A stretch of 64,000 nt of DNA from Anaerolineales bacterium (GCA_019454165.1 CP075367.1:579971-643970), one strand, 5' to 3'; counted from the first letter of the stretch, positions 1 to 14,232 are shown. Program-made: numbers and translations. The notes: generated by a model from the sequence alone, not told the origin.

Positions 1-1
1 C

Positions 2-253
2 GCTACTTACAGCAAACGATTTGCAAATGAGCGCAGCCGCGCCAAGTTACAGCACATGGTGGACTACCTCATAGGCACGCCGATCACTTCTATTCCACAG
101 GCTGAAGAGGCAACTAAGCTGGGAAGCTTTACAACTGTGCAGCGCTATATCGAGAAGCTTGAGGTCCTGGGCATAGTCCAGGAAGTTACTGGCCAGGGAC
201 GAAACCGTATCTATCGGGCAAGTGAGATTTTGCGGGCGCTGGAAGAACGGTAA
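2..253 (+). CDS. Fic-family protein, C-terminal winged-helix fragment (5' end outside window)
   Basis: Frame 2 is open from the window edge to TAA 251-253. The tail LGIVQEVTGQGRNRIYRASEILRALE resembles the C-terminal wHTH (TG..RNR) of Fic/DOC-family proteins as I recall them. ORF-track entry 56-253 is only the part after an internal Met. Confidence 0.5.
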   Translation, partial: ATYSKRFANERSRAKLQHMVDYLIGTPITSIPQAEEATKLGSFTTVQRYIEKLEVLGIVQEVTGQGRNRIYRASEILRALEER

Positions 254-260
254 CTAGGTC

Positions 261-3200
261 TTATTGCTCAAAGCCTGAATTCTTGAACTTCAGCGTTTTT
301 GCATTCTCACTTACGGTTCTAACTACATCTTCAGAAAAGCCTTCTGGGCTCTCTGCGGAGATTTCCAAAGAAATCGTTATCTTGGAACCAACCAGCCCCG
401 CTAGATGAGACACAACCTCGTCAGCGATTTGACCCGCGGCGCGCCCAAGGCGTGTGGGGTCCAAGTCTATGGAGCCGTGGAAACGACGAAGGCTTTGCGG
501 CTTAGAGGGAGTAACAGCAGCTTCCGTACCCTCGCCCACAGCATGGCTTTCCCAGCCTTGCCCGCCTGTGTAGACGCTGTCACTGGGCGCCTCGTGGGCC
601 TCGCTTTGCCTTTGCGCCTTCACCGCTGCGGGTTTAATGATGACGCTTGCCCCGTCAAAAGCAACCGACGGCAAGGCGCCGGCGACCAAGCCGACATAGT
701 AGCCATCTGCTCTTACCGCAGAGGCATAACCAAAATAATCAGTCCAGGTGATTGAAGCTACGCCTTGGCGGATTGCTTCGGCGAGTACATTTTGATCACG
801 CAAGCGCGGCAGGTAAAGATACTGTGCCAGATATTCCCAAAGTTGTTTTACGGAAAGATGGTTCGCGTTTTTCCATAAGTAACGATCCAGCTCAATCAAT
901 AGGGTTGCTGCTGCCCAATCTTTGATTAAATCCTGGCTGTGGAGCAGCTTGGCAGACACCCGCTCCACCAGATGCTCTCCGCCTTGCAGACGGGTAAAGC
1001 TCCACTCATATTCCTTGTCCGAGGCGGATTTCTTCTCTTTGTGTCTGGGAAGCAGCGCGTGGCAATAGGTTTCCAGTATCTGCGCCTGCACGATTTCGGT
1101 GTAGTTCTTGCGTTTTGCTTCGACTTCATGCACTTGAGAGGTGGTCAGGTTGCGGTCGTCCCTCTCTGTGTAGATTTGCTCCCAGGCTTTCCAGAGACTT
1201 ACAGCCTGGCTCAATTCCTGATAGCGCTCGTTATCCGCGGCCAGGAAGATGAGCATGTTGCGGTATAGGCGCGGGCTGTTGTCTCGCTGAGTCAGGACAT
1301 CGTCGGCGAAGGCCACGGCTGGGCTGCCACCGTTGTCCTTGCGGTGCGGGTGCGCCGGCCCAATGATGACCAGGCGGCAACTGTCTTCGTCGGGCACATC
1401 GCCGCTGCCCTTGGGGTCGGCGTGTACGCCGGCGAATTCACCCCACTTACGCTTGGCGATGATATCGCGCAGGCGGCGGCTGACTTCGTCCTCAATTTCG
1501 TGCGGGCGTGTGCGAATGCGTTCGGCGATGTTGGCGGCCTCGCGGCCAATGGTTGGCCGGGTATCAAAGTAATACCGCCCGGATTCCTGATAAAGATAGG
1601 TTAGCTCTTCAGAAAGGCGACGCAACGCGTCGCCAAAAGCGCTGACATTCTCCCCGGGCTGAACACAACCCAGCTTGATGTTCAGTTCATCCAAGCCGCG
1701 CACATTCTGCTCAGTAACCGAAGGCGCGCCACCAAAAAAGACCGTGCGCGCTACGCGCCGAGAGGCCGAATAGCGGTTGAGATTGGGGTTATCACGATCC
1801 AACGCCAAGGGGCGGCTTTGCATGCCGTCGATGTCGCGGTCCAGCACGGCGCTCCAGCCAGTGGGCAGATAGTCTGAGAGCGTGGTGCGCACGGTGTTGT
1901 TGTCCAGCGGCACGAAACCAGGCATGATCAGCGCGCCGGCGTCGCCGCGATCCCAAAGCTCGTAGATGATGGCCGCCATGAGGCGCAACACGCCGCGGGT
2001 CTGTTGGAAGCGCTCAAGGGTAGACCAGTCCAAATAGAGCCGGTCAAAGAATTCCGGATGGATTGGGTATGAATTCTTCATCCGTTCCAGATAATCTCCC
2101 TGGCGGGTTTCTGCCGGAAAATCTGCGCGGTTGGCAGCGTACATGTCGCTGAATTCGCGGCAGACTGCATCTCGCGCCGCCAGGTCTTTGATGGGCTCAA
2201 ACAGGCGGCGGCGTACGATTTCAAAGCGCTCGTCACCGCTGGCGGGCTGCCAGGCGACGGCTACACGGACAAAAACGTTTTCGATGTGCTCCAACGCCTT
2301 TTCACCAAAGGGGCCGCCTTTTTCGTGGTCAGAAGCGGGCAGCGAGGCCACCAGCATGCAGTTGGGCACGGTCTTGACGGCCTCGGTGAGGGCTTGCACA
2401 AAGGTGATGTTGGCTTCAAAGGTGCCTGCCGGCAGGTTTTCCTTGCCATAGATTTGGCGGGCAAAACCGACCCACTCATCGATCAAAATTAATGCAGGGC
2501 TGTAGGTCTTGAGCAGCTCGGTGAGCTTTTCCGAGCCAGGGCTGACCCCATCGGCATCTTCTTTGGCGATTAATGCAAAGGCTTCTTTGGCCTTGCCAGC
2601 CGCGGCGCCCAATTGCCAGGCAAGCTCACCCCACAGGGTATTGACCTGGGCGCCGTCTGCCTTTGTGCTGCCGCTGGGGCTGATTTGGGTGCCCACCAGC
2701 ACGACGCGGTTGGCGGCGGGGATGACTGCTTTATCAGCAGCAACGTCCTGGGGAACAATTTTCTCAATATCGGGCACTTGGTTTGGCTGCAATTGCCCGC
2801 CGAACAAGTGATACAGGGCCAGCATGGAGTGGGTCTTGCCGCCGCCGAAGTTGGTCTTGAGCTGCACCACCGGGTCGCCGCCCAGCTGGCCCAGGCGAGA
2901 CCAGGCGCGTTTGAGCAGGGCCGAGAGGCCCTCGGTGAAGTAGGTGCGGTTGAAGAATTCAGCCGGGTCCAGGTATTCTTTTTCTGCCCGGCCAGTGATG
3001 ACCTGGAACAAGTCAGCGGCGAATTCGGCCTGCTGGTAGCGGCCGGCGGCCACGTCTGGGTGCGGAGTGGCGATTTGACGCCAGGGGGTCAGCGCGGTTT
3101 TGCCGCCCAGGTTGGTGGCATCCACCATTTGCTTCTTGCGCTTTTTGGACTCTTCTTCCAGGCTGCGGCGCAGGAGTGCATCGTGCAGCTGCTTGACTTC

Positions 3201-3614
3201 ATCGGCGCCGGTGTTGGCGGTCACTTGCAGCAGGCGCACAATTGTATCCAGGGCGCGCAGCGTGTCTTCTGTGGAGAAGGCGCTTTGGTGCGCCCAACTG
3301 TTGCGGATGTCGTTGATTTCATGCACATAGCTGCGCGTCACCCCGCCCAGCTGGTTGTTAAACACGGTGGGCCAGTTGGTAAGAAAGAGGGTGATGACAA
3401 ACTGCACGTCTGCGCCTTTGCGCACGCGCTCTTCATAGCTGCCCTTGGCTTCTTTGACGCGCAGGCCCTTGGTATCTCGGAAGCAGGGCTCCACGCCTTT
3501 TTGCCACCACTGGTCTTTGTAGGCAGTCTGAAGCTCCTGAATTAGGTAGGGGAGTTCGTTTTCCAGCAGGATGTCCAGCGCCTGCCCAATGAGGTCTTTG
3601 TTGCTCTTCGCCAT
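261..3614 (-). CDS. Swt1-like HEPN domain fused to DUF499-type P-loop ATPase (BrxC/PglY-like large ATPase)
   Basis: ATG at 3614 with AGGAGG 4 nt upstream, overlapping the TAG of the upstream gene. N-terminal HEINDIRNSWAHQ carries the HEPN Rx4H motif. LKTNFGGGKTHSMLALYHLF is the DUF499 Walker A region. The 34 extra codons up to 3716 overlap the upstream gene and were dropped. Confidence 0.8.
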   Translation of the reverse strand: MAKSNKDLIGQALDILLENELPYLIQELQTAYKDQWWQKGVEPCFRDTKGLRVKEAKGSYEERVRKGADVQFVITLFLTNWPTVFNNQLGGVTRSYVHEINDIRNSWAHQSAFSTEDTLRALDTIVRLLQVTANTGADEVKQLHDALLRRSLEEESKKRKKQMVDATNLGGKTALTPWRQIATPHPDVAAGRYQQAEFAADLFQVITGRAEKEYLDPAEFFNRTYFTEGLSALLKRAWSRLGQLGGDPVVQLKTNFGGGKTHSMLALYHLFGGQLQPNQVPDIEKIVPQDVAADKAVIPAANRVVLVGTQISPSGSTKADGAQVNTLWGELAWQLGAAAGKAKEAFALIAKEDADGVSPGSEKLTELLKTYSPALILIDEWVGFARQIYGKENLPAGTFEANITFVQALTEAVKTVPNCMLVASLPASDHEKGGPFGEKALEHIENVFVRVAVAWQPASGDERFEIVRRRLFEPIKDLAARDAVCREFSDMYAANRADFPAETRQGDYLERMKNSYPIHPEFFDRLYLDWSTLERFQQTRGVLRLMAAIIYELWDRGDAGALIMPGFVPLDNNTVRTTLSDYLPTGWSAVLDRDIDGMQSRPLALDRDNPNLNRYSASRRVARTVFFGGAPSVTEQNVRGLDELNIKLGCVQPGENVSAFGDALRRLSEELTYLYQESGRYYFDTRPTIGREAANIAERIRTRPHEIEDEVSRRLRDIIAKRKWGEFAGVHADPKGSGDVPDEDSCRLVIIGPAHPHRKDNGGSPAVAFADDVLTQRDNSPRLYRNMLIFLAADNERYQELSQAVSLWKAWEQIYTERDDRNLTTSQVHEVEAKRKNYTEIVQAQILETYCHALLPRHKEKKSASDKEYEWSFTRLQGGEHLVERVSAKLLHSQDLIKDWAAATLLIELDRYLWKNANHLSVKQLWEYLAQYLYLPRLRDQNVLAEAIRQGVASITWTDYFGYASAVRADGYYVGLVAGALPSVAFDGASVIIKPAAVKAQRQSEAHEAPSDSVYTGGQGWESHAVGEGTEAAVTPSKPQSLRRFHGSIDLDPTRLGRAAGQIADEVVSHLAGLVGSKITISLEISAESPEGFSEDVVRTVSENAKTLKFKNSGFEQ

Positions 3615-3622
3615 CTCTCCTC

Positions 3623-6511
3623 CTAAAACAGGGCGGGCGTTTGCTTGGCGGCCATCTCTTTGAGCCGTGGCCAGGCGGCCACCAGCATGTTGTACCCCAG
3701 CGCCTCGCCCGCCCAACTCTTGCGCTCACAAATGGAGTACAGGCGATAGGCCAGGTCTTTGCCCGGCTCGGCCAGGGCGCCCAGCCCGGTCAGCAGGGCG
3801 GCAGCGGCCGCCTCGCCGTCGGTCTCCAGCGCGCGGATGAGGTAGTGGCAAGCCTCCCAGACCGAGAGCTGCTTGTCGCTGTGCGGGGTCCAATCCGCAT
3901 CCAATTCTTCACGCGGCAGCAGGCGCACCTTGCCAGCACGAGACTGGAGGATACCGGAGTGTGCCAGCCCCTCGATACTAGTGTTTTTGGCTTTGCTCAG
4001 CGTTTCGGCCACGCCGAATTCCGCGGCGTTGTGGCCAAACTGCTCGAACCAGGTTAGCGCCCAGCGCGTCTCGGCGTCAAAATCGCCTTCCTGTTCGGCC
4101 AAGTATTGATCCAGAACCTGGTTAATTAAACCCAAAGCCGTGCGCACGCTCATTTTTGAGCCGTCAGATTCCAGCACAGCGTTGTAGCGGCTAAAGATTG
4201 CCATTCCGGGGCCGATGGCAGCCTGGGCAAAGTCAACCGGAGCGACGTTGCCAAATCTAAGCTCCTGCAATGCTTTTGGCAAAACCTGTTCAAGAAGGAT
4301 AAGGAAATCTCGTCTGACAATGGTGTCGCGCTCATCAGTTTTTGGTCTGCAAACCAAGACAATTGATGAGGCTAATATGTTTGCCCCACCAATTTGAAGC
4401 GCTTTGCTCGCTAATTCCGTGCGCATTGGCCAGGTTCCTGTAATCTCAAACTGTGCATCCAGAAGACCCTGAAGCATTGTTTCCCAGCCGGTTGATGCGG
4501 TCACTGTTTCAGATCTGCTTTCAGTGGTGCTGTCCACTGATTCCGTTTGTTTAAACGCATAAAAGACTGATGTTGGGACAAGAAGCGAGCTGGCCTTAGA
4601 CATGCTCTTAAATGTTTCAAAAAGACCAACTTCAAAGAATTCCTTTGCCCTTTCTCGATTTCCATTAAATCGATAAGGCGTAGCAACGAGTTCCTCGCTC
4701 TTTGGAACCATCAAAGTAGTCAATAAAGAACTAAAACTTGAGTGGAGCATCTGCCTAAGCCATATATAAAAGAAATCTGATAGGTCTGCATATCCAATAT
4801 TGTCGTAGTATGGTGGATCAGTTGCTAGTACAAGCTTGTTACCGTTCGATAACTTTCGAGCATCTCGCTGCTCAGAGAAACCGGGGACACCAATGGGGAG
4901 GCCGTCAATAACACGAAGAATCCAATTGACTGCGCCTGCATAGCTACCCATTGTTTCAAACGGATTTACTTCACAAAAATCCCAAACCATAGGCAGTGCA
5001 TGTCTAGCAAAAGTCCCTCTCAAACTTTCAGAACCTACATCCCAGCTAGCCAATGATGAGTTCCTGTCAAGGAGTTTGCTAGCCGCAAACGCCAAATACA
5101 CGGCCACCGCATCCGCATACGCTTGGGCGCCGCTGCCGCCGGCCTCCAGGCCCAGGCCGTCGTCTTTGAGGCCGGCCTGGCGGGCGTGTTGCAGCGCCAG
5201 GCTGCGGGCCTCGCCCACCAGGTCGCTGAAGGTGGTGAGGGCCACTAGTTGGCGATCGGTGAAGAGGTCTGCGTGCTTTGTCATTCCGTATAGCTGGACA
5301 CGGAAGCCAAGGGCCTTTTCAGGCAGGTCCGTTTCTGGTTTCCACGCGGGTACAGCGCTTTTAGCAACGTCTTCATGTTCTTGAAGTGGCGAGAAATACA
5401 CACGTCCCTTAGGCCCATCTGCGACTGCCGCCAACAACTGAGCGTTCATTCGCCCCGCTTTGCCTTCGTCTCTAATGTGATCAAAGGGTACTGGGCTGCC
5501 ACAAGCTACGCATGATGCACCAGTGCGTTCAACGGTTCCCTTCGGGGCCTTGCCTTGCCCGGTTTTTACAATAAAACGAACTCGCTCCCCTTTAGAGCCT
5601 TTAGTTGGCTCTATTTCTACCCATGCTTGTCTGTCCTTCTTTTTGCTTAGCTCAAAAGAGCGCACCAAGGGCATTTGCACACCGCAAGCTGGATTGGGGC
5701 ACTTCACCGTGCGCGCCCACAGCCAGGCAATTACGGTCAGCTCTTCGCCAGCTTTGATGCCCTGCTCTTTTAAATCGGGTCGCTCAGCCAGTATGGCGGC
5801 CGATATCTTTACCTTGGGGTAAAGCTGGCCAATGCGCTCTTCTGCCTGTTGGCGCATCCAGTTGCCGTAATAGCGCACATCTTCGGCCAAACCCTGGGCG
5901 CCTTTCCACTCTCGGCCCTTGAACATGTCAGATTGGTCGCCTTGCCCAGCTTCTTCCACCGGATGCACTGGGGGCAGGTTAGCGAACTTGGGCGGGATTT
6001 CAATCAGAGCCTTGTTGATGAGCACTGCCACCGGGTTCAAGTCGCTGGCGTAGGCGCGCAGGCCCAGGCGTTGGGCTTCCAGCGGGATGGAGCCGCCGCC
6101 GGCAAAGGGGTCCAGCACGGGTGGGGCCTGGGTGGCCAGGAATTCTTCGATGGCGTGTTTGCCCACCGGCATTTCCAGGCCCAGGTTACGGGCCACACTG
6201 CGGGCAATTTCCAGCTTGGCCGCATCCAGCACTTCTTCGTTGTTGCTGTTCTCCCATTTGACCAGTTCCTCAATCAAGTTGAACAGGCGCTGGCGTTCGG
6301 CTTTCTGTTTCTCCTCATCCTGTATGTACTCACTGGGATCGTCCACCAGGGAAGAGAAGAGCACCGCCCGGCAGGCGGCCAGCGGTCGTCGCGCCCACCA
6401 CAGATGCAAGGTGCTTGGGTGCCCATGGCGGATGGACTTCTCTCGCGCGGCCTCTTTGTTGATTGCCTCAAGTGGCAGGGCGACTTCGATGAGCTTTTTA
6501 GGGTAGGTCAC
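3623..6511 (-). CDS. DUF1156-type DNA methyltransferase (DPPY, probable N6-adenine/N4-cytosine class)
   Basis: N-terminus KKLIEVALPLEAINKEAAREKSIRHGHPSTLHLWWARRPLAACRAV is the DUF1156 signature. It also has a SAM-pocket-like DPFAGGGSIPLEAQRLG and catalytic motif IV LATDPPYYDNIGY. It abuts both neighbouring genes. Confidence 0.85.
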   Translation of the reverse strand: MTYPKKLIEVALPLEAINKEAAREKSIRHGHPSTLHLWWARRPLAACRAVLFSSLVDDPSEYIQDEEKQKAERQRLFNLIEELVKWENSNNEEVLDAAKLEIARSVARNLGLEMPVGKHAIEEFLATQAPPVLDPFAGGGSIPLEAQRLGLRAYASDLNPVAVLINKALIEIPPKFANLPPVHPVEEAGQGDQSDMFKGREWKGAQGLAEDVRYYGNWMRQQAEERIGQLYPKVKISAAILAERPDLKEQGIKAGEELTVIAWLWARTVKCPNPACGVQMPLVRSFELSKKKDRQAWVEIEPTKGSKGERVRFIVKTGQGKAPKGTVERTGASCVACGSPVPFDHIRDEGKAGRMNAQLLAAVADGPKGRVYFSPLQEHEDVAKSAVPAWKPETDLPEKALGFRVQLYGMTKHADLFTDRQLVALTTFSDLVGEARSLALQHARQAGLKDDGLGLEAGGSGAQAYADAVAVYLAFAASKLLDRNSSLASWDVGSESLRGTFARHALPMVWDFCEVNPFETMGSYAGAVNWILRVIDGLPIGVPGFSEQRDARKLSNGNKLVLATDPPYYDNIGYADLSDFFYIWLRQMLHSSFSSLLTTLMVPKSEELVATPYRFNGNRERAKEFFEVGLFETFKSMSKASSLLVPTSVFYAFKQTESVDSTTESRSETVTASTGWETMLQGLLDAQFEITGTWPMRTELASKALQIGGANILASSIVLVCRPKTDERDTIVRRDFLILLEQVLPKALQELRFGNVAPVDFAQAAIGPGMAIFSRYNAVLESDGSKMSVRTALGLINQVLDQYLAEQEGDFDAETRWALTWFEQFGHNAAEFGVAETLSKAKNTSIEGLAHSGILQSRAGKVRLLPREELDADWTPHSDKQLSVWEACHYLIRALETDGEAAAAALLTGLGALAEPGKDLAYRLYSICERKSWAGEALGYNMLVAAWPRLKEMAAKQTPALF

Positions 6512-7528
6512 TTAGAAATGCATCTCCCGGGATGTGGTTGCCTTTAAATCAGCGCTTCCGAGTGGATGGGTTGTTGAATCAAAGAAGCTGACATTGGCAT
6601 GCGGAAAGAGACCGCAATAATACGCTTTTTTGTTCAGAGTGTCTTCGTTACTTCGCGGAAAAATAGAAACGGCCAAAGTCGGATTACCCCAGCTACAAAT
6701 CGCATCAATGATATGTTTGTCGCTTTCACTTAGTGATTGGCCAAAAATGACAAGAGATTTATTGAATTGGGAAAACTTCTGATGGGCAAAAGTCAGATAA
6801 TCAGATGAAGCAATAGTCTCGATTTTTTGCTGAGCGTTTCCTTCGGAAACAAACAGCGGCTCGGCGCCATTGAAGGGTCGCCCAAACAACTCAAGAAGTG
6901 TATATCCTCCTTCGTTCCGACGTTTTAGTGTCCCGCCCAGACGGGTTCGATACAAGTGTAGTCCCCCATGGAGATACAGGACTGCTTTTAAGCCATCAGG
7001 CGCCGAAGCCCTGAGCGAATCAAATCGTTGCTCTCTAAAAAAATCTGTAAAACCTTCGCCTTCTTGTTGCATGATCGACCAGTATGTAAGCAGGTCATAA
7101 TTAGTTGAAAAAATATCGTTATATTCGAACAAGGCAGCCCGGATGGCCTCAAAAATTTCTTGCCAGACCCTATCCCACGGTATGTGCACGGAATGGACTG
7201 CCTGAATGAGCGCCTGTTTTATTCTGTCGTAGCTGGCGGATAACGAAGCCTGTTCTATGTGATGAATCATGTTCACCTGCTGGGCAATTGAGAGCAAGTG
7301 CAGAACCTGTTCAAAGTTGTTGTAGGAGTTAAAACTCTCGAAAAGTTTTATGTCATCTTCGTTCAGTGGATCTTTGATAAGTTCAGAACGTGCTCGCTCG
7401 AATATTGAGGAGTAACTAAATCTATCTGAAACGGCAATGCTTGCTCCGTTTCCGATAAGGATGCCCTCCCAGCCGTTGCCTGCTATCTCTTCCCACGTCA
7501 CTAGGCGATCGTCAATTACGCAATTCAT
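6512..7528 (-). CDS. DUF4917 / SIR2-like (SIR2_2-type) protein
   Basis: Ordered motifs ILIGNGASIAVS, IFSTNYDLLTYW, VLYLHGGLHLY and PLFVSEGNAQQK fit my memory of DUF4917 and of SIR2_2 (GxGxS ... NYD ... LHG). ATG 7528 lies 17 nt inside the helicase 3' end, and the stop abuts the methylase ATG. Low GC: line 7081-7140 hand-counts to 21/60. Confidence 0.7.
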   Translation of the reverse strand: MNCVIDDRLVTWEEIAGNGWEGILIGNGASIAVSDRFSYSSIFERARSELIKDPLNEDDIKLFESFNSYNNFEQVLHLLSIAQQVNMIHHIEQASLSASYDRIKQALIQAVHSVHIPWDRVWQEIFEAIRAALFEYNDIFSTNYDLLTYWSIMQQEGEGFTDFFREQRFDSLRASAPDGLKAVLYLHGGLHLYRTRLGGTLKRRNEGGYTLLELFGRPFNGAEPLFVSEGNAQQKIETIASSDYLTFAHQKFSQFNKSLVIFGQSLSESDKHIIDAICSWGNPTLAVSIFPRSNEDTLNKKAYYCGLFPHANVSFFDSTTHPLGSADLKATTSREMHF

Positions 7529-10500
7529 TTTTTGCCCCCAGACTAACTAAACTCTGAATCTTATAATTCACGCTGGTAGCAGCGAAATCCGGCTCGCGTT
7601 CAAAGGGTGGGCGGAAGTACAGTCGCTCGCGCAGCACCGGCTGGTCGGCTACAAAATCAACTTTGACCACGGCCAGGATGTATTTCTCCGGCTGGTTGAG
7701 ACCGGCCAGGATTTCGTTTCGGGTCAGGGTGACGGTGGTGGCCGCAGCAATACGGCCCTTCACCTCAATGAAGCGCAGGCGGCCTTGGCCATTGCGGCTT
7801 TCAATGTCCCAACCCAGGTTTTGGGCGCTCACGTCTATGGGTTCGTGGCCCAGGCTGCGCTCATAATCCATCACGGCCTGCATGGCGGCCTGCTCCACGG
7901 CGCGGCGCTGAACGCCAAACAGCTCGTCGCCGCTTTCTTCCGCTTCCTGTGCAAGCCCGAGTGTATCCAGCAGGCCGCGCGGCACCACCAGCGCGCCGCC
8001 CAGCAGCCGCGGCTTCTGGGCCACTAGTTGGCGCTCCTGCTCCAGCTCTTCCATGCGCCGCTCCAGCCGGGCCTGCAGGTCGTTGGCGCGGCGGCGGGCC
8101 TGCTCAGAATTCAGCTTGGCATTTCGTTTGCCAGCCTGTTCCTGGGCCTTCAGGTCTTCAGCCCGGCGGTCCCAGAACTGAATTTCTTTGGTCAGGCGCT
8201 CTTTGACCGCCGCGGCTGTCTTGCGCACCATTTCTTGGCGGCGGGCGGAAGTCTCCTCAAAATGGGATGGCACCATGCTGGCTACCGCATACTCAATCGC
8301 CCGCTCTTCAAAGTTGTTCTGCAGCCAGTCTTTGGAAAGCTGGCTACGAACCGCATCGAGCCACTCGGACGGGATGGGTTGGTAATCCAGAAAAGGCGCT
8401 GCCCCTGCGGCGCGGGCCGCGCCAGCCGCATCCATCTCCACAAACTGCATCTGGCGCGAAATCACGCGGCGCTCCCCGTTGGAGTCCGGGCGTCCATCCT
8501 GGATGCTGTGCTCAAGGTAAAACAAGGCGCGCGGGCCCTCACTGGGGTCGTTGGGGTCTAACAGCAGCGCGCCGCGCTTGAGCAAGTCTCCGTAACGCTC
8601 CAGAAGAATATCCTGCACAGCTTCTACCAAAGCATGGCCGGGGGTGAGGAACTCGGCGGTGGGCTTGCCGGCAATATCTATATCTTCTTTGTGGAAGGTG
8701 GCGCGCTCGTAGCGCTCCAGCACTTGGCCGCGGCCCAGCAGGCGGGCGCGCTCGCGCACGGCCCCGGGTACATGCGTGATTTCATAGCGGCGCGGTTCGC
8801 GCGGGTGCATCGAGCCACCCAGGATTTCAAAGGCGGCGGCGAAGAAGGAGGCCACGAAGTGAGGCTGCAGCCGCTTGGCGGCAGCCCGCTCAAAATCTTC
8901 GCGAATGTTCTGGATGCGGGTGGTGTCCAGCACATCGCCGGCCAGCAGTTGGTCTTCCAGCAGGGCGCGCACCTTGTTTTGGTCAGTGATGTTGTCCACG
9001 GCTTCAAACAGGCGGGCGCGCACATCCTCTCTGTCTCCGTAGCGCACAGCCTGCACCAACAGCTCGCGCAAACTCTGCTCGCGGAACAATTCCCCCAAGA
9101 CGTCGAAGACAGCGTCGTCGTTTAGCGCCCGGCGCTGCTCTTCGATCTTCTCGAGCAGGCGGGAATATACATAGCCCTCACGGGTTTCGTTGGCCACCAG
9201 GTTCCACAGGTGGCAAACTTCTCGCTGACCAATGCGGTGGATACGGCCAAAGCGTTGCTCCAGGCGGGTAGGGTTCCAGGGCAGATCATAGTTCACCATC
9301 AGGTGAGCGCGCTGCAAATTGATACCCTCACCGGCAGCGTCAGTAGCCACCAGGATGGAGACATCCTTGTCCTGCACAAAGGCGGACTGTACGCGGCGGC
9401 GCTCGTCGCGCAGCATGCCGCCGTGGATAGCGACCACCGCCTCGGGCTTGCCGAGCAGAGTGCGGATGCGGTCGACCAGGTAGTTCAGTGTATCGCGGTG
9501 TTCGGTGAAGATCACCAGCTTGCGCCGCAGCCCAGAGCTATCAAAAAGCTCGTTCTGTTCCTGCAGCAATCGGGAGAGCTCAGCCCATTTGCGGTCATCC
9601 TTGCTGCGGCGCACTTTGTCCGCCATGTTTTCCAGGTCTTTGAGGATGAAAATTTCGGCTTGCAATTCGTCAATGGTGCGAGCTGAAGTGGCCATATCGC
9701 TTACTTCAGTTTCCAGTGCTTCCAATTCCTCGTCGGGAATTTCATCGATGTTTTCGAGTTCCTCGGTGTCTAGATTCACCCAATCTGCTAGTCCGGCGCG
9801 CGCCTGTGCGCCACGCTGGAGCAACGTTTCCTCTCTCAGCTTATCTTCCAAGCGCTGGCGACGACGTTGCAACGACTGGTAAATGGCCTCAGGGCTGGAG
9901 GCCAGGCGGCGCTGCAGGATCATCAAGGCAAAGCCAACTGTGCCGCGCTTCTCCTTGTCCAACTGCTCGGCCCGATTGAACTCTTCTCGGACGTAATTGG
10001 TCACCTGTTCGTAGAGGATCGCCTCCAGATCGGAGAGCTTGTAGTTGACTGTGTACGCCCGCCGCTCCGGGAACAGCCGCGTGCCATCAAAGCGCAGCAG
10101 CTTTTCCTTCACCATCCGGCGCATCAAATCCTGCGCGTCTACTGAATGGTGGCCTTCACGATACTTTCCTTCGAATCTGTCCGGGTCAAGCAGGGCCATA
10201 AAAAGTTGAAAATCTTCCTCTTTACCGTTATGAGGAGTCGCTGTCATGAGTAACAGGTGACGAGTTTGCTGTGAGAGCGCCTGCCCAAGCCTGTAGCGCT
10301 TAGTGTAGGAAATCTCCCCAGCGAACACAGAGGCGGAAAGCTTGTGCGCCTCGTCAAATATCACTAAGTCCCACTCGGCCCGCTTAAGCATCTCTTCATA
10401 GTCTGCGTTACGGCTAAGCCAGTCCAGGCGGGCAATGCCCAGGGGAACGTCTGTGAAGACATTGCCATCTCGAGCTGCCTCAAAACGTGCGTTAGTGAAG

Positions 10501-11039
10501 ATTTCAAACTCCAGGCGAAATTTCTGGTAAAGCTCGTCTTGCCACTGTTCAGTTAAATTACCAGGTGCAACAATCAGACAGCGTTCCAAGTCGCCGCGCA
10601 GCATGAGTTCTTTTACATATAGACCAGCCATAATGGTCTTGCCTGCACCAGGATCGTCTGCAAGCAGGTAGCGCAGCGGTTGTCTGGTGAGCATGTGCTC
10701 ATAGACTGCTGAAATTTGGTGGGGCAAGGGGTCGATGATGGACAAGTGAACCGCCATCCACGGGTCGAACAAATAGGCCATTCGAATACGCGTAGCTTCG
10801 GAGGCCAGACGGAACAAATCGCCCTGGCTATCAAAAGCCCATTGTGTCCCCGGCTCAAAGATGGTCAGCGCATGCTCTTTTGAGCGAAAAAGCAGCTCTG
10901 TATGAAGGCCGCCTTGCTGGTCGCGGTAGACGACCTCCAGGGTATCGCCTAACCACTTCGCATCTATTATGGTGACCTTCTGTTTAGGGAGCAGGCCCTC
11001 AACCACCGATCCGTACTTTATTTCTTCTAACTTAGCCAC
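7512..11039 (-). CDS. SNF2/DEAH-type helicase with C-terminal PD-(D/E)xK nuclease-like domain (DUF3883-like)
   Basis: Motif I LLADDPGAGKTIMAG, motif II FDEAHKL, motif III LLMTATPHNG and motif VI-like QRFGRIHRIGQ. A long coiled-coil region follows, then a C-terminal GWDIES...RFIEVKGR core (D...E-x-K). GTG start at 11039. Confidence 0.85.
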   Translation of the reverse strand: MAKLEEIKYGSVVEGLLPKQKVTIIDAKWLGDTLEVVYRDQQGGLHTELLFRSKEHALTIFEPGTQWAFDSQGDLFRLASEATRIRMAYLFDPWMAVHLSIIDPLPHQISAVYEHMLTRQPLRYLLADDPGAGKTIMAGLYVKELMLRGDLERCLIVAPGNLTEQWQDELYQKFRLEFEIFTNARFEAARDGNVFTDVPLGIARLDWLSRNADYEEMLKRAEWDLVIFDEAHKLSASVFAGEISYTKRYRLGQALSQQTRHLLLMTATPHNGKEEDFQLFMALLDPDRFEGKYREGHHSVDAQDLMRRMVKEKLLRFDGTRLFPERRAYTVNYKLSDLEAILYEQVTNYVREEFNRAEQLDKEKRGTVGFALMILQRRLASSPEAIYQSLQRRRQRLEDKLREETLLQRGAQARAGLADWVNLDTEELENIDEIPDEELEALETEVSDMATSARTIDELQAEIFILKDLENMADKVRRSKDDRKWAELSRLLQEQNELFDSSGLRRKLVIFTEHRDTLNYLVDRIRTLLGKPEAVVAIHGGMLRDERRRVQSAFVQDKDVSILVATDAAGEGINLQRAHLMVNYDLPWNPTRLEQRFGRIHRIGQREVCHLWNLVANETREGYVYSRLLEKIEEQRRALNDDAVFDVLGELFREQSLRELLVQAVRYGDREDVRARLFEAVDNITDQNKVRALLEDQLLAGDVLDTTRIQNIREDFERAAAKRLQPHFVASFFAAAFEILGGSMHPREPRRYEITHVPGAVRERARLLGRGQVLERYERATFHKEDIDIAGKPTAEFLTPGHALVEAVQDILLERYGDLLKRGALLLDPNDPSEGPRALFYLEHSIQDGRPDSNGERRVISRQMQFVEMDAAGAARAAGAAPFLDYQPIPSEWLDAVRSQLSKDWLQNNFEERAIEYAVASMVPSHFEETSARRQEMVRKTAAAVKERLTKEIQFWDRRAEDLKAQEQAGKRNAKLNSEQARRRANDLQARLERRMEELEQERQLVAQKPRLLGGALVVPRGLLDTLGLAQEAEESGDELFGVQRRAVEQAAMQAVMDYERSLGHEPIDVSAQNLGWDIESRNGQGRLRFIEVKGRIAAATTVTLTRNEILAGLNQPEKYILAVVKVDFVADQPVLRERLYFRPPFEREPDFAATSVNYKIQSLVSLGAKNELRN

Positions 11040-11157
11040 TGGTGTGGATTATACGAGTAACCAGTATCTCATCTGGACAAATGGCCAAGGGCTTTTAGGA
11101 GCGGTCTTAACTGTGCCCGACAACGGAAAGCTAAAATTTGCCCCTAAGGTAGTTGGT

Positions 11158-11958
11158 CTAGAAACTGAAAAGCAGGAGGCTGGTCGCTACGACAATCACA
11201 ATGGAGTAGCCAACTATAAAGGTTGTTGGCACCCAAATTTCCTTTGATGTGAACGAGCGATATTTTTTCTTCCCAAAGCCCAGAGCGTCCCACTCGGCAG
11301 TATAGATCGCGATCTTTAAGTAGCGTTCTATTGTGTTAATAACCTTGAACTTCCCCGTATTTAATTGGCCAAACGAAGTTATCAGGCTTCTCCACGCTCC
11401 ACACAAGATCGCGCCGACTATGCCCAAAATTGCTATCCATGAAGCTCTGGCGACTTGACCATCTGAGTTTTGTAAAACAAAGCCAGCAACTGTGATAAGC
11501 GCACCATTTAGAGTTAAGAAAAATGAGTTTACAGTTTGCCTGCGGTTGATAAGATTCTCAGAGCTTTCGACCATTACTTTGTAAAGTTCAAGTGCCTGGG
11601 TAACATCCTTGTCGTTTTCTAACAAACCATTTGGAAACAGAACGTCAAGGAATCTATCTTCTGAAGGTTGCTTGTTTTCTATCAGCAGGGCTGCCCTTTG
11701 AATGGCCTCTACATACAGATCGTCCTCCCTTCGAGTTTCTGTATCTAGTGCACTATATTCAACCAAGGCTTCGTGCGCTTTATTGCTTCGCATCATCCAT
11801 GCTGACCAAGCGTCATGGACATCGCTCGGGGAAACCGCCTGCCCCTTGGCGCGCAAGAGAATTGCATAGAGACGAAGTAGGTCGTCGGCATCCTGGCGCG
11901 GTACTTTATTCGCTGGTATTTGCTTCCGGATCTCTTCGGCTATATCATCAAGATACAT
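11158..11958 (-). CDS. Membrane protein: N-terminal soluble helical domain plus 3 predicted TM helices (candidate effector partner of the TIR-like protein)
   Basis: Hydrophobic stretches FFLTLNGALITVAGFVL, WIAILGIVGAILCGAWRSLI and IWVPTTFIVGYSIVIVVATSLLLF follow a roughly 140-aa polar N-terminal domain. ATG 11958 directly follows the TAA (11961-11959) of the upstream TIR-like gene. Low GC: 23/60 in line 11521-11580. Confidence 0.65.
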   Translation of the reverse strand: MYLDDIAEEIRKQIPANKVPRQDADDLLRLYAILLRAKGQAVSPSDVHDAWSAWMMRSNKAHEALVEYSALDTETRREDDLYVEAIQRAALLIENKQPSEDRFLDVLFPNGLLENDKDVTQALELYKVMVESSENLINRRQTVNSFFLTLNGALITVAGFVLQNSDGQVARASWIAILGIVGAILCGAWRSLITSFGQLNTGKFKVINTIERYLKIAIYTAEWDALGFGKKKYRSFTSKEIWVPTTFIVGYSIVIVVATSLLLFSF

Positions 11959-12342
11959 TTATCCCCAGCTACTAAGCCAAGTGATAATGTCGGCGAAGTT
12001 CCAACGAATAACATTTGCGCTTGGCAACCCTTGAGGAATGATATGTGTTTCGTCGCGATTAATTTGGATGCCAAACATGTAGTTGCTCTGTCTAATGGTC
12101 TCTGCAATCTCCCACAAAACAGCCTCCGAACGATAAGTGGTTGCACCTATCAATACAATGGTCCCCTTGGTTTGGGCTATTCGTTTTGCGCACTCAGTCT
12201 TCCAGGCGAAATCAAAAGGATCCTTTACAGAGTAATCATAGAATTCAATTTCATTGTTTTTGTCTTTGGCTTGTTGCACCAAGAAATCACGAGCCCATTT
12301 ATCTTCCATTTCAAAACTTATAAAAGCGCGTGGTTTTGCCAT
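11959..12342 (-). CDS. TIR-like domain protein (DUF1863/MTH538-type, ThsB-like)
   Basis: PRAFISFEMEDKWARDFL (beta1 plus acidic motif) and GTIVLIGATTYRSEAVLWEIAETI (conserved W-E) match the DUF1863 TIR-like pattern that includes Thoeris ThsB (from memory). AGGAGG-type SD sits upstream of ATG 12342. Confidence 0.7.
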   Translation of the reverse strand: MAKPRAFISFEMEDKWARDFLVQQAKDKNNEIEFYDYSVKDPFDFAWKTECAKRIAQTKGTIVLIGATTYRSEAVLWEIAETIRQSNYMFGIQINRDETHIIPQGLPSANVIRWNFADIITWLSSWG

Positions 12343-12479
12343 ATTGCCTCCTCGTTGGCAAGTAGAATTTCCTTATTATAGTAGTAAGCTGCTTGTCTCA
12401 GCTCAGATTGTAAAGATGACAACTGTAATCGGCTTGCCGGAGTGGATGGAACTACTGATTTTATACAATAGACTAGTCA

Positions 12480-13148
12480 ATGACAACAAGGGGGTTTCAA
12501 TGTGCTGGGTGTGGGGTTAAAGGCGCGATTTGGTGCAAAAGTTGTCAAAATCAGACTGTGAGAATAGGGCTGCTCTGTTGCAAAAGATGCGGCTATCCAT
12601 CTGAGAGACATATTTGCAAGTGGTGCTGTTATGAAACGCCCTGGTTTGACAGTGCCAGGTCTTGGGCTCGCTATAGTGGTGAGCTTCGTAAAGCATTGGT
12701 TTACCTGAAGACACAAGAAAGTGTCGATCTAGCGTCCGCATTGGCTGCCCATTTGGCGGAAGTGCTTTTACCTAGCTGGGCAATTGATTTAGTAGTTCCC
12801 ATTCCACTGTCCGCAACCCGGCTGCGTATGCGCGGCTTCAATCAAGCAGAATTGTTGGCACAAGCTTTTGCTCAGCTAGTACAACTGCCTATCGCAATTA
12901 AAGCGCTAATGCGGATTCGTGATACTAAGTTTCAGCGAACCCTGGGACGTGCAGATAGAAAGCAGAACGTGAGACAAGCCTTCAGGGCTGACGGGAGATC
13001 ATTTGCTGGAATGAAGATACTAATAGTCGATGATATTTTCGTAACTGGCGCAACGATTAATTCGGCTTCTAGGGCAATAAAGAAAGCTGGAGGACACTCT
13101 GTGTTCGCAATTACGGTTGCGCGAAGTCTGTTAAACACACCTGCATGA
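12480..13148 (+). CDS. comFC: ComF-family protein (double zinc ribbon plus phosphoribosyltransferase domain)
   Basis: N-terminal Cys pairs CAGCG...CKSC and CKRCG...CKWCC. PRTase PRPP loop ILIVDDIFVTGATINS near the C-terminus. TACAAT lies 10 nt upstream of the ATG. Confidence 0.75.
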   Translation: MTTRGFQCAGCGVKGAIWCKSCQNQTVRIGLLCCKRCGYPSERHICKWCCYETPWFDSARSWARYSGELRKALVYLKTQESVDLASALAAHLAEVLLPSWAIDLVVPIPLSATRLRMRGFNQAELLAQAFAQLVQLPIAIKALMRIRDTKFQRTLGRADRKQNVRQAFRADGRSFAGMKILIVDDIFVTGATINSASRAIKKAGGHSVFAITVARSLLNTPA

Positions 13149-13320
13149 GAATAAAAGGAACATCGAACCGCCTTCCCTATCGGGTGCAACGCGGGTGCAA
13201 CCGGAATTGATTCAGTACTCAAAAATTGACTGTATTGACAGATTTCCCCCTCGATTTACGGGTAAAATCGACCCCGTTACTCGTTATAGACTCTATTTAC
13301 AGCCCTTTGAAGTTTCGCTA

Positions 13321-13349
13321 GGTTGTAGGTTCGAGTCCTACCCGAGGAG
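13321..13349 (+). other. Orphan tRNA 3' fragment (T-arm plus 3' acceptor strand), possible relic att site
   Basis: GTAGG-TTCGAGT-CCTAC is a canonical T stem-loop (GGTTCGAGTCC), followed by 7 nt CCGAGGA. No matching 5' acceptor strand, D arm or anticodon arm could be built from the upstream 60-100 nt. It sits exactly where low-GC sequence changes to high-GC. Confidence 0.35.
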
Positions 13350-13410
13350 CTCACTCCCCCTTTCTTTCCCCTCCAGAGAAGTCACCCCACGTTCCGGCGC
13401 AGGCCCACAA

Positions 13411-14232
13411 ATGAGCGAAAGTTTGCCGGGGTTGCGCGCTAAGGTTCTACTGTATGCAGCCTCCGGCGTGGTACTGGTCGCCGCCGCGGCGCTGGGCTGG
13501 AACTTTCGCATAGGCCGTCCGCAGTTCAGGCCAAACCCAATAGACCCCACGATCATCGAAGTGCTGGTGCGTCATGGAAATTTCGACGCCGGCATGCAGG
13601 CTGACAACCGCCGCGGCGGCCAGCTTGCGCTTCCGCCGCGCCAGGTCTGGCTTGATGATTATTGGATCGAGCAGACCCAGGTCACCAATGTACAGTATGC
13701 CCACTGTGTCGCAGCCGGAGCATGTTCTGTGCCCCTGGATGCGGAGCTCAACCCGCACTTTTACGATGAAGCCTATGCTAACCACCCGGTGGTTTTCGTC
13801 ACCTGGCAGAACGCGGCAGATTTTTGTGCCTGGGTGGGTGGCCGGCTGCCGACGGAGCTGGAATGGGAAAAAGCGGCCCGCGGCGATCAGGGGCGTTTGT
13901 ACGCGTGGGGAGAAGCCAACCCGGAACTCAACGCCTATGTGAATATCAACAACATCCATGACGGCACGGTCCCGGTGGGCTACTACCCGGAGAGCGCCAG
14001 CCAGTATGGTGTTCTGGATATGGGCGGCAACGTGCGCGAGTGGGTCTTCGACTGGTACAGCGAGGATGGCTCCGACGCTTTGAGCGGGCCGGAAACCGGC
14101 GAAGCCAAGGTGCTGCGCGGTGCATCCTGGTTTGATCCGGGCTTCTTCTCCATGACCTTTGATCGCCTGCAGCACGTTCCCGATTCGCCCGGCCAGAACC
14201 GCGGCTTCCGCTGTGCCTTTTCTGACCAATAA
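13411..14232 (+). CDS. Formylglycine-generating-enzyme (SUMF1/EgtB/PvdO) family protein with N-terminal membrane anchor
   Basis: Motifs VTNVQYAHCV, HPVVFVTWQNAADFCAWVGGRLPTELEWEKAARG, GNVREWVFDWY, VLRGASWF and FRCAF. Start set at ATG 13411 (MSESLPG..., followed by a TM helix). The upstream 72 codons cross the tRNA-like fragment and low-GC DNA. Confidence 0.8.
   Translation: MSESLPGLRAKVLLYAASGVVLVAAAALGWNFRIGRPQFRPNPIDPTIIEVLVRHGNFDAGMQADNRRGGQLALPPRQVWLDDYWIEQTQVTNVQYAHCVAAGACSVPLDAELNPHFYDEAYANHPVVFVTWQNAADFCAWVGGRLPTELEWEKAARGDQGRLYAWGEANPELNAYVNINNIHDGTVPVGYYPESASQYGVLDMGGNVREWVFDWYSEDGSDALSGPETGEAKVLRGASWFDPGFFSMTFDRLQHVPDSPGQNRGFRCAFSDQ

Follow-up and report, generated by a model that had tools for sequence, protein, structure and literature searches.

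A predicted Hma (Type-1 BREX-related) operon of an Anaerolineales bacterium with a SIR2-like DUF4917 gene between hmaA and hmaB

We analyzed a 64,000-nucleotide stretch of an Anaerolineales genome (the window), in which positions 261-11039 hold four closely packed genes, all on the minus strand. Their ORFs, confirmed here, had been delimited in an earlier note written from the sequence alone (Table 1). The hmaA, hmaB and hmaC genes are co-oriented in this order in one operon, an order shared by 62 of 80 related loci, and a DUF4917 gene is inserted between the first two. Direct reading of the sequence bore out the junctions that had been described: the hmaA TGA (7514-7512) lies 17 nt within the DUF4917 gene, which starts at ATG 7528, and the DUF4917 TAA (6514-6512) abuts the hmaB GTG at 6511. 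The hmaB TAG (3625-3623) falls within TTTTAGGAGGAGAGATG, so that the Shine-Dalgarno sequence AGGAGG overlaps the hmaB stop codon, and hmaC begins at ATG 3614. The mechanical hmaC ORF extends to a TTG at 3716; we take the ATG as the start, since alignments to relatives begin at its residue 1 and the orthologue in a second Anaerolineales genome (L327, described below) is also 1117 aa long. Promoter and terminator scans of positions 1-12600 returned shuffle-level counts (7 versus 6.3 and 21 versus 15.7, respectively). The upstream neighbors of the operon are a TIR gene, a RipA-like gene, a PRTase gene and an FGE-sulfatase gene; a literature search for a defence role of 8xMP and RipA found nothing relevant. 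A plasmid search for near-identical DNA matched only DUF499 fragments of ~87 nt.

Table 1. Features of the operon and the sources of their annotation (window coordinates).
Feature	Position	Strand	Evidence
hmaA: SNF2/DEAH helicase with C-terminal NOV_C PD-(D/E)xK nuclease, 1175 aa	7512..11039	-	PADLOC, Pfam, motifs
NOV_C nuclease domain of HmaA, residues 1048-1134	7638..7898	-	Pfam PF13020, E 1.2e-22
DUF4917 / PADLOC PDC-S21, SIR2-like protein, 338 aa, cargo gene in operon	6512..7528	-	Pfam, PADLOC, AlphaFold2/Foldseek
Indel cassette: new 14-codon hmaA tail and DUF4917 ORF	6512..7556	-	blastn against L327, GC
hmaB: DUF1156 N6-adenine-type DNA methyltransferase, 962 aa	3623..6511	-	PADLOC, Pfam, motifs
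hmaC: HEPN-DUF499 AAA+/STAND-like ATPase, 1117 aa from ATG 3614	261..3614	-	PADLOC, Pfam, motifs
Swt1-like HEPN domain, HmaC N-terminus, R104-x4-H109	3225..3584	-	Pfam HEPN_Swt1, E 2.3e-24

The domain assignments made in the earlier note all proved correct, with Pfam and PADLOC matches far beyond chance. HmaA matches SNF2-rel_dom (E 3.8e-14), Helicase_C (E 3.1e-23) and ResIII in addition to NOV_C, the family annotated as DUF3883 in the table of Liu et al. 2024 (PMC11232893), and aligns with the PADLOC HmaA profile (1176 positions) over residues 1-1170 at 1623 bits. It carries GAGKT131 and DEAH229 motifs, followed by D1078, E1092-V-K1094 and E1109, and this D / E-x-K / E pattern agrees with the positions that were mutated in the Halomonas protein (D1084, E1104, K1106 and E1121; PMC11232893). 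HmaB is matched nearly full length by its PADLOC profile (1229 bits, residues 3-957) and by DUF1156 (E 4.5e-29), with DPFAGGGS134 (FxGxG) and DPPY565 motifs. HmaC matches its PADLOC profile at 1037 bits and DUF499 at E 4.5e-29, and has a GGGKT257 Walker A and a DEW Walker B motif. The PADLOC alignment begins at residue 208 of the TTG-initiated ORF, and the HEPN domain falls outside this model; of 65 related HmaC genes, 57 have such a domain.

Judged by sequence, the helicase-nuclease, the DUF1156 methylase and the HEPN-DUF499 ATPase constitute an intact Hma, also called Type-1 BREX-related (BR), system. The previous reading of the locus as a defence operon is supported. The accompanying statement that the trio lacked a mechanistic description did not hold. 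Hma was named by Payne et al. 2021 in PADLOC, with 1,638 occurrences across 26 phyla (PMC8565338), and the trio is therefore an already named system rather than a novel one, an outcome that the earlier note had listed among those refuting its reading. Liu et al. 2024 reported that HmaA of Halomonas meridiana alone protects E. coli from T4, that protection requires both helicase and nickase, and that T4 still did not escape HmaA upon over-expression of HmaB, a result that weighs against self-marking by methylation in Type-1; within Hma, experimental tests are limited to this Halomonas HmaA (PMC11232893). Rakesh and Krishnan (NAR 2026) reclassified Hma as the Type-1 DUF499-centered BR system, in which the HEPN fusion is the majority form (1370 of 2446 taxa) and the helicase-nuclease fusion is carried by 79% (PMC12839542).

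The second gene of the operon encodes a protein that matches Pfam DUF4917 (E 8.9e-48) and, over its full length, PADLOC PDC-S21 (PDLC04961; E 2.9e-97, residues 7-329 against profile positions 11-333 of 336). A look-up of the exact product sequence gave no record, and we computed an AlphaFold2 model (pLDDT 87.5). Foldseek searches against the PDB returned the SIR2 subunit of SIR2-HerA as the best match (8suw_B, E 2e-8, TM 0.57), followed by DSR2, and the top 19 matches are all SIR2-HerA or DSR2 entries. The defence NADases SIR2-HerA, DSR2 and KomC thus rank far ahead of SIRT5 (2e-8 versus 1.7e-2). The model therefore has a SIR2 (Rossmann) fold, in agreement with the earlier SIR2-like call. The motifs G26NGAS, TNYD (N143) and LHG (H187) are invariant in 24 sequences (the window gene and 23 homologues), and N143 and H187 align with the same motifs in PDB 8w9l. 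Because the window gene has every residue that is invariant across this alignment, we consider that it is not decaying. The DUF4917 protein is probably an NAD-consuming enzyme. It is a 338-aa single domain for which we found no cognate partner or sensor (HerA, SLOG, pAgo or DSR C-terminal domain), and the locus contains no HerA gene. A literature search linked neither DUF4917 nor PDC-S21 to phage defence and found no validation of the candidate. The sole characterized DUF4917 protein, C. jejuni SliP, is reported to be a secreted protein deacetylase of the sirtuin type with host histones as its targets (PMC10421069).

Comparison with L327, an Anaerolineales MAG, identifies the DUF4917 segment as an indel, either an insertion in the window lineage or a loss in L327, two directions that a comparison of two genomes does not separate. 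The two loci are collinear from the PRTase gene through hmaC at 82-84% nucleotide identity (93.7% amino acid identity for HmaA and 91.6% for HmaC, which is of equal length in both). In blastn alignments, window positions 13287-7557 correspond to L327 positions 2-5732 and positions 6510-194 to 5812-12126; window positions 7556-6511 have no match in L327 and form the only segment missing there. On the hmaA side the breakpoint follows the ...SVNYKI codon, inside the conserved 3' end of the gene, and on the hmaB side it coincides with the start codon, so that the operon structure is preserved. The DUF4917 gene is also foreign in composition (GC 0.450 and GC3 0.46, versus 0.55-0.58 and 0.60-0.68 for the hma genes). 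A search for flanking direct or inverted repeats as a mobility signature yielded only short matches at chance level.

Published work describes the hmaA-hmaB gap as a place where defence genes insert, with insertions in 66.5% of hma loci (PMC11232893). Our survey of the 80 closest HmaB loci comprised 62 collinear hmaA-to-hmaB loci; the gap exceeds 600 nt in 45 of these (73%) and accommodates PtuA/Septu, AriA-like, HEC-01, GmrSD, Schlafen, PIN and SAVED genes, with DUF4917 cargo in none of the 62. As a single-sequence scan of genome contigs with the DUF4917 protein found nothing, we used an alignment-based scan to collect homologues. Among the sampled loci, 153 of 166 (~93%) lie outside Hma and ~7% occupy the hmaA-hmaB slot, the latter amounting to 12 unique loci in metagenomes and MAGs that are unrelated. 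We found no neighbor of DUF4917 other than Hma that recurs; stand-alone copies have heterogeneous flanking genes and no conserved partner gene was found for them. Other settings include a position next to an MmeI-type RM gene and a UvrD helicase. We also considered whether the Hma-embedded copies form a clade and rejected this grouping: identities are flat (35-66%), nearest neighbors are mixed, and embedded copies are on average 43% identical to one another and 41% identical to non-embedded ones. At least six embedded loci show an overlap or direct abutment at a gene border, between the hmaA stop and the DUF4917 start or between the DUF4917 stop and the hmaB start. One of them, L165, has the exact HmaA-DUF4917-HmaB order with abutting genes, and L189, L190 and L235 have ATGA-type overlaps. 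An autonomous Septu cargo in Halomonas also overlaps hmaA by 4 nt (PMC11232893 coordinates), and tight packing is therefore not evidence of integration. Both the DUF4917-Hma association and the translational coupling are recurrent, a counterweight to an autonomous-cargo reading; recurrent coupling could reflect selection for stoichiometric co-expression with Hma.

We favor, with a probability of about 0.78, the interpretation that the locus is an intact HEPN-fused Hma (Type-1 BR) system with one extra, autonomous DUF4917 cargo gene. In its biochemical activities and trigger, which we infer by homology, HmaB would mark self DNA by adenine methylation at short asymmetric sites, HmaC, the DUF499 ATPase, would load and regulate the methylase and recognize unmodified DNA, and the HmaA helicase-nuclease would then translocate along invading DNA and nick or cleave it. 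A role as last-resort abortive effector is proposed for the HEPN RNase at the HmaC N-terminus. The DUF4917 gene may have entered the hmaA-hmaB gap via a cassette exchange in which the last nine hmaA codons were replaced as well, and it would now be co-transcribed and translationally coupled with the operon. Its product most likely functions on its own, as a single-gene defence, and not as an Hma subunit. The locus would thus be largely ordinary: a named anti-phage system whose known cargo hotspot holds a separate candidate defence gene, SIR2-like in type. The earlier proposal that the methylation module is coupled to the SIR2-like gene as a third effector is unsupported because the syntenic L327 operon lacks the gene, its composition is foreign, the site is a cargo hotspot and ~93% of DUF4917 loci lie outside Hma.

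That proposal corresponds to a reading in which the DUF4917 protein is a fourth component, namely an accessory NADase activated upon detection of unmodified DNA by HmaBC or upon inhibition of HmaA, and thereby a methylation-gated abortive back-up. We regard this as unlikely, and as equally unlikely that a subset of DUF4917 proteins has been repeatedly recruited to the hmaA-hmaB junction as a translationally coupled, Hma-triggered NAD-consuming effector. The reuse of the slot in 12 loci and the abutting or overlapping junctions speak for a fourth component, as does the location inside Hma of two of the four closest homologues examined, but the embedded copies are non-monophyletic without raised mutual similarity and all 62 collinear loci lack the gene. 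Stand-alone DUF4917 has neither a sensor domain nor a conserved partner, hence its trigger must come from elsewhere, and the nearest structural relative, SIR2 of SIR2-HerA, needs a partner ATPase for activation. However, a close relative retains an intact operon without DUF4917, the GC content of the gene is foreign to the operon, most family members reside outside Hma and the slot hosts many clearly autonomous systems (PMC11232893). The presence of DUF4917 is moreover uncorrelated with HEPN absence: L161, L191, L202 and the window have both, and L016 has DUF4917 without HEPN. If recruitment to Hma had occurred, methylation would gate DNA-nuclease, HEPN-RNase and NADase outputs in one system, and this partner-less family would gain its missing sensor.

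We find it somewhat less probable still that DUF4917 has no defence function here and is instead an NAD-dependent deacylase like SliP, a regulator (e.g., modifying Hma proteins) or a functionless passenger. The retention of every invariant residue, the full-length PDC-S21 match and the ranking of defence NADases above SIRT5 argue against it, as does the repeated presence of the family in a defence cargo hotspot and beside RM and UvrD genes; the deacetylase report on SliP, the housekeeping genes among DUF4917 neighbors in most genomes and the silence of the literature on phage defence are consistent with it. A canonical BREX or DISARM system is the least probable reading by far and is already contradicted by gene content. 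The description of the operon as BREX- or DISARM-like stands insofar as the DUF1156 methylase and the DUF499 ATPase are relatives of BREX components: DUF499 and BrxC are homologous, and the methylase is similar to those of Type-3 BREX (PMC12839542). It fails as to membership. We detected no PglZ, BrxA, BrxB, BrxL, DrmA, DrmB (DUF1998) or DrmC (PLD) in the operon or the 5 kb upstream (260 nt are visible downstream), and the four proteins gave no PglZ or BrxC match and only a weak PglX match (E 0.0096). HmaA does match helicase profiles of DrmD (E 1e-122) and BrxHI/II (E 2e-95), but its NCBIfam DrmD score of 372 bits is under the cut-off of 610 and the Hma profiles outscore the DrmD and BrxH profiles 3 to 4 times (about four times for HmaA against DrmD).

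Returning to the favored reading of Hma with autonomous cargo, the trio is one more intact example, from the under-sampled phylum Chloroflexota, of a widespread, named and partly characterized system, and in itself matters little. The window and L327 provide a clean natural with/without pair that shows a cargo swap between hmaA and hmaB at nucleotide resolution. The repeated presence of DUF4917/PDC-S21 in the hotspot is independent guilt-by-association evidence for a defence gene, and the locus nominates this compact 338-aa SIR2-like protein as a candidate.

Among known proteins, the DUF4917 product shares its fold and the TNYD and LHG motifs with the defence sirtuins SIR2-HerA (Nezha), DSR2 and ThsA, from which it differs by the lack of a HerA partner, SLOG or large sensor domain and by a sequence identity of just 12-16%. 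It resembles PDC-S21, a single-gene phage defence candidate, in its full-length HMM match and as a single-gene module without a conserved neighbor, but here it lies inside another system, with which it is translationally coupled. It shares the Pfam family DUF4917 with C. jejuni SliP, whereas the present gene lies in a defence operon of an environmental bacterium. For the core, the best available mechanistic template is MANTIS / Gao_RL, the sister Type-2 BR system, in which a methylase loaded by the ATPase leaves asymmetric sites hemimethylated and unmodified DNA is restricted by the helicase-nuclease (Shaw et al., bioRxiv 2026, 10.64898/2026.09.23.753747). Both have a DUF499 AAA+ ATPase, a DUF1156-type N6-adenine methylase and an SF2 helicase-nuclease effector. 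Membership in MANTIS was ruled out, as NCBIfam equivalogs score far under their cut-offs (118 versus 1000, 177 versus 1200 and 188 versus 1100), the nuclease is a C-terminal PD-(D/E)xK and not the N-terminal HKD/PLD of MtsD, and the locus has no small fourth gene like the required co-regulator MtsB (DUF3870). The locus differs from described Hma systems in its Chloroflexota (Anaerolineales-like) host and its DUF4917/SIR2-like cargo, which goes unmentioned in the main text of the Hma/BR papers and in six supplements of the NAR paper. It agrees with Hma (Type-1 BR) in its three proteins, each matched over nearly its whole length and encoded in the order A-B-C, in the helicase-NOV_C fusion, in the HEPN-fused DUF499 that is the published majority variant and, as in Halomonas with Septu, PARIS and Ppl, in carrying cargo between hmaA and hmaB.

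The locus is an Hma (helicase, methylase, ATPase) system, that is a Type-1 BREX-related (BR) system of the HEPN subtype, carrying a DUF4917/PDC-S21 gene as a type of cargo not noted before. The junctions between its four large minus-strand ORFs, read from the sequence, are exactly those described in the earlier note. The hmaA TGA (7514-7512) lies 17 nt within the DUF4917 gene, which starts at ATG 7528, the DUF4917 TAA (6514-6512) abuts the hmaB GTG at 6511, and the hmaB TAG (3625-3623) is embedded in an AGGAGG positioned 8 nt 5' of the hmaC ATG 3614. We assigned the hmaC start to this ATG rather than to the TTG at 3716 because the alignment of homologues starts at residue 1 and because a close relative has an orthologue of the same length, 1117 aa.

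Features of the operon and its upstream neighbourhood (window positions)
Feature	Position	Strand	Remarks
hmaC, mechanical ORF	261-3716	-	TTG at 3716; supported start, ATG 3614
hmaB ORF	3623-6511	-	large ORF
DUF4917 ORF	6512-7528	-	large ORF
hmaA ORF	7512-11039	-	large ORF; operon span 261-11039
DUF7701 + 8xMP protein, 266 aa	11158-11958	-	NCBI name 'RipA family octameric membrane protein'
ThsB-like TIR gene, 127 aa	11959-12342	-	Pfam ThsB_TIR 1.4e-13
Phosphoribosyltransferase (PRTase), 222 aa, GC 0.48	12480-13148	+	ComF/GntX-like, NCBIfam 5e-30 (below cut-off)

Pfam searches recovered every domain that had been inferred from the translations: SNF2/ResIII/Helicase_C and NOV_C (PF13020) in the helicase, DUF1156 in the methylase, and HEPN_Swt1 and DUF499 in the ATPase. 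The catalytic motifs of the trio are intact. Comparison with PADLOC profiles, which the earlier note had proposed, was decisive and identified the trio as HmaA (1623 bits over residues 1-1170), HmaB (1229 bits) and HmaC (1037 bits). As the HmaC alignment begins at residue 208, the HEPN domain falls outside the PADLOC model. The PADLOC DrmD and BrxH helicase profiles scored three to four times below HmaA. Assignments to DISARM DrmD (372 for an NCBIfam cut-off of 610) and to the Gao_RL/MANTIS proteins (118, 177 and 188 for curated NCBIfam equivalog cut-offs of 1000, 1200 and 1100, respectively) were rejected. Within hmaB, GC dips to 0.43 at positions 4501-5000 (residues about 503-670, at and past the DPPY motif), with flanking 500-nt bins at 0.52-0.59; the amino-acid composition encoded there could account for the dip, as could recombination of a segment, for example one for target recognition.

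The 338-aa protein encoded between hmaA and hmaB matches DUF4917 in Pfam (8.9e-48) and the single-gene candidate PDC-S21 in PADLOC (2.9e-97), and is matched weakly by the SIR2 and AbiH models. Its designation as SIR2-like is supported. The GNGAS, TNYD and LHG motifs are invariant in an alignment of 24 homologues. The AlphaFold2 model (pLDDT 87.5, pTM 0.87) most closely resembles the SIR2 subunit of SIR2-HerA/Nezha complexes (E 2e-8, TM 0.57), followed by DSR2, KomC and SIRT5. The only PDB match at the sequence level is the same SIR2-HerA SIR2, aligned across TNYD and LHG. We infer that the DUF4917 protein has NADase activity; Campylobacter jejuni SliP, the only characterised DUF4917 protein, is described as a deacetylase (PMC10421069). 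A literature search returned no mention of PDC-S21 and no link of DUF4917 to defence, and neither SIR2 nor DUF4917 is mentioned in the BR paper (PMC12839542) or six of its supplements.

The DUF4917 gene could be an integral component of the system or cargo. Its GC is 0.450 (GC3 0.46), against 0.581 (0.68) for hmaA, 0.554 (0.60) for hmaB, 0.579 (0.68) for hmaC and a background of 0.62. The nearest syntenic relative, L327 (GCA_026129325.1, an Anaerolineales MAG), has the same order of PRTase, TIR, RipA-like, HmaA, HmaB and HEPN-DUF499 genes and lacks DUF4917. It aligns to window positions 13287-7557 and 6510-194 with 83.7% and 82.4% nucleotide identity, and the protein identities are 93.7% for HmaA, 88.9% for HmaB and 91.6% for HmaC. 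In place of the 1045 nt at window positions 7556-6512, L327 has only 79 nt. The left breakpoint lies just past the ...SVNYKI codon of hmaA, so that the last 9 hmaA codons are replaced by 14 new ones, and the right breakpoint is exactly the hmaB start codon. In L327, downstream of hmaC (12067-12126, minus strand), a Fic/Fic_N gene converges on the hmaC end; the equivalent region lies beyond window position 1.

A survey anchored on HmaB gathered 80 related loci, 62 of them collinear from hmaA to hmaB, with an hmaA-hmaB gap of at most 150 nt in 12 and of more than 600 nt in 45 (73%). The gap ORFs include PtuA/Septu, AriA-like ATPases, HEC-01, GmrSD, Schlafen-AlbA2, PIN, NYN, SAVED and integrases; DUF4917 was found in none of these 62 loci. 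The HEPN domain is present in 57 of 65 HmaC genes. Gene order in the family is not fixed, since four of the 80 loci (L118, L131, L134 and L135) have their HEPN-DUF499 gene upstream of hmaB; the first three show the visible order hmaA-hmaC-...-hmaB, where other genes fill an interval of as much as about 9 kb.

A second survey, anchored on DUF4917, covered 166 loci that were taken from genomes and metagenomes or found by exact-protein look-up. DUF4917 sits between hmaA and hmaB in 13 of them (12 unique), one of which, L165, has a four-gene layout identical to that of the window. Of the 134 loci whose downstream sequence spans 1.5 kb or more, 8 contain hmaB. Embedded copies form no cluster of their own (mean identity 43% among themselves and 41% to the rest), and the stand-alone copies have no conserved neighbour. 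Several embedded copies overlap or directly adjoin a neighbouring Hma gene, either hmaA (DUF4917 start at the hmaA stop) or hmaB (DUF4917 stop at the hmaB start). Such tight packing is undiagnostic, as in Halomonas the autonomous Septu cargo and hmaA likewise share 4 nt. Together, the two surveys, the composition, the empty site in L327 and the undiagnostic packing identify DUF4917 as a cassette that is dispensable and was gained on its own, lodged in a slot where defence genes accumulate. Its recurrence there may reflect a functional link with Hma and lends guilt-by-association support to DUF4917 as a defence gene, and the window and L327 form a with-and-without genome pair showing how cargo is exchanged. 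Elsewhere (for example L161, 4523-6196; L162, 5727-9011; L163, 4701-9023), DUF4917 lies directly 3' of other DNA-targeting defence genes, such as one for a GmrSD_N protein within an Hma locus, one for a UvrD-type helicase (then DUF4062) and an MmeI-type IIG restriction-modification gene, which hints that it often rides behind nucleic-acid-targeting systems.

The operon lies within a lower-GC stretch (positions 1-14232, GC 0.546 versus 0.620 in the remaining window), immediately downstream of a ComF-like PRTase gene and of a gene pair encoding a TIR and a RipA-like membrane protein. The two genes of the pair abut each other, share the strand of hmaA and end 118 nt upstream of it, and they recur with 0-6 nt spacing in all four other contexts examined (an Anaerolineales MAG, Dasania marina, an Acidobacteriota MAG and a Marinobacter salarius-type contig). 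The pair looks like a Thoeris-like module combining a TIR with a membrane effector, and its PADLOC v2 matches are weak (ThsB 7e-8, PDC-M50B 5e-8, PycTM 0.006). The PRTase, whose position adjoining the TIR gene is conserved in L327, resembles the PRTase part of PsyrT and ShosT (PADLOC 3.6e-13 and 3e-8) and may serve in competence or as a defence toxin. EF-Tu shares 82% identity with its counterpart in an uncultured Chloroflexia MAG and, with an Anaerolineales MAG as the nearest syntenic relative, the host most likely belongs to the Chloroflexota.

The earlier note's reading of a defence operon with these domains stands, whereas its view of the SIR2-like gene as a coupled effector is not supported, in view of L327, the low GC and the surveys. 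Its description of the trio as uncharacterised is out of date. Hma was named in 2021 by Payne et al., with 1,638 instances in 26 phyla and Septu often adjoining (PMC8565338). Halomonas HmaA alone was then found to protect Escherichia coli against T4, which requires the helicase and the NOV_C nickase (D1084, E1104, K1106, E1121), and HmaB over-expression gave no T4 escape from HmaA, a result that does not bear out self-marking by methylation in a Type-1 system (Liu et al. 2024, PMC11232893). The same study reported insertions in 66.5% of hma loci and a hotspot for defence-gene insertion between hmaA and hmaB, exemplified by Septu, PARIS and Ppl. Hma was reclassified in 2026 by Rakesh & Krishnan as the Type-1 DUF499-centred BR system, with a HEPN-fused ATPase in 1370 of 2446 taxa and a helicase-nuclease fusion in 79%, its HEPN-DUF499 neighbourhood being traced to Anantharaman et al. 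2013 (PMC12839542). A September 2026 preprint (bioRxiv 10.64898/2026.09.23.753747) describes how MANTIS/Gao_RL, the sister Type-2 system, works: the methylase, loaded by the DUF499 ATPase, leaves asymmetric 6-bp sites hemimethylated, and a helicase-nuclease restricts unmodified DNA.

Judging by homology to MANTIS and to the system studied in Halomonas, HmaB and HmaC would use adenine methylation to label self DNA and would detect unmodified DNA, which HmaA would translocate along and nick or cleave. The HEPN RNase is proposed to act as an abortive back-up, and the SIR2-like protein, produced from the same transcript, would most likely consume NAD+ independently upon some trigger.
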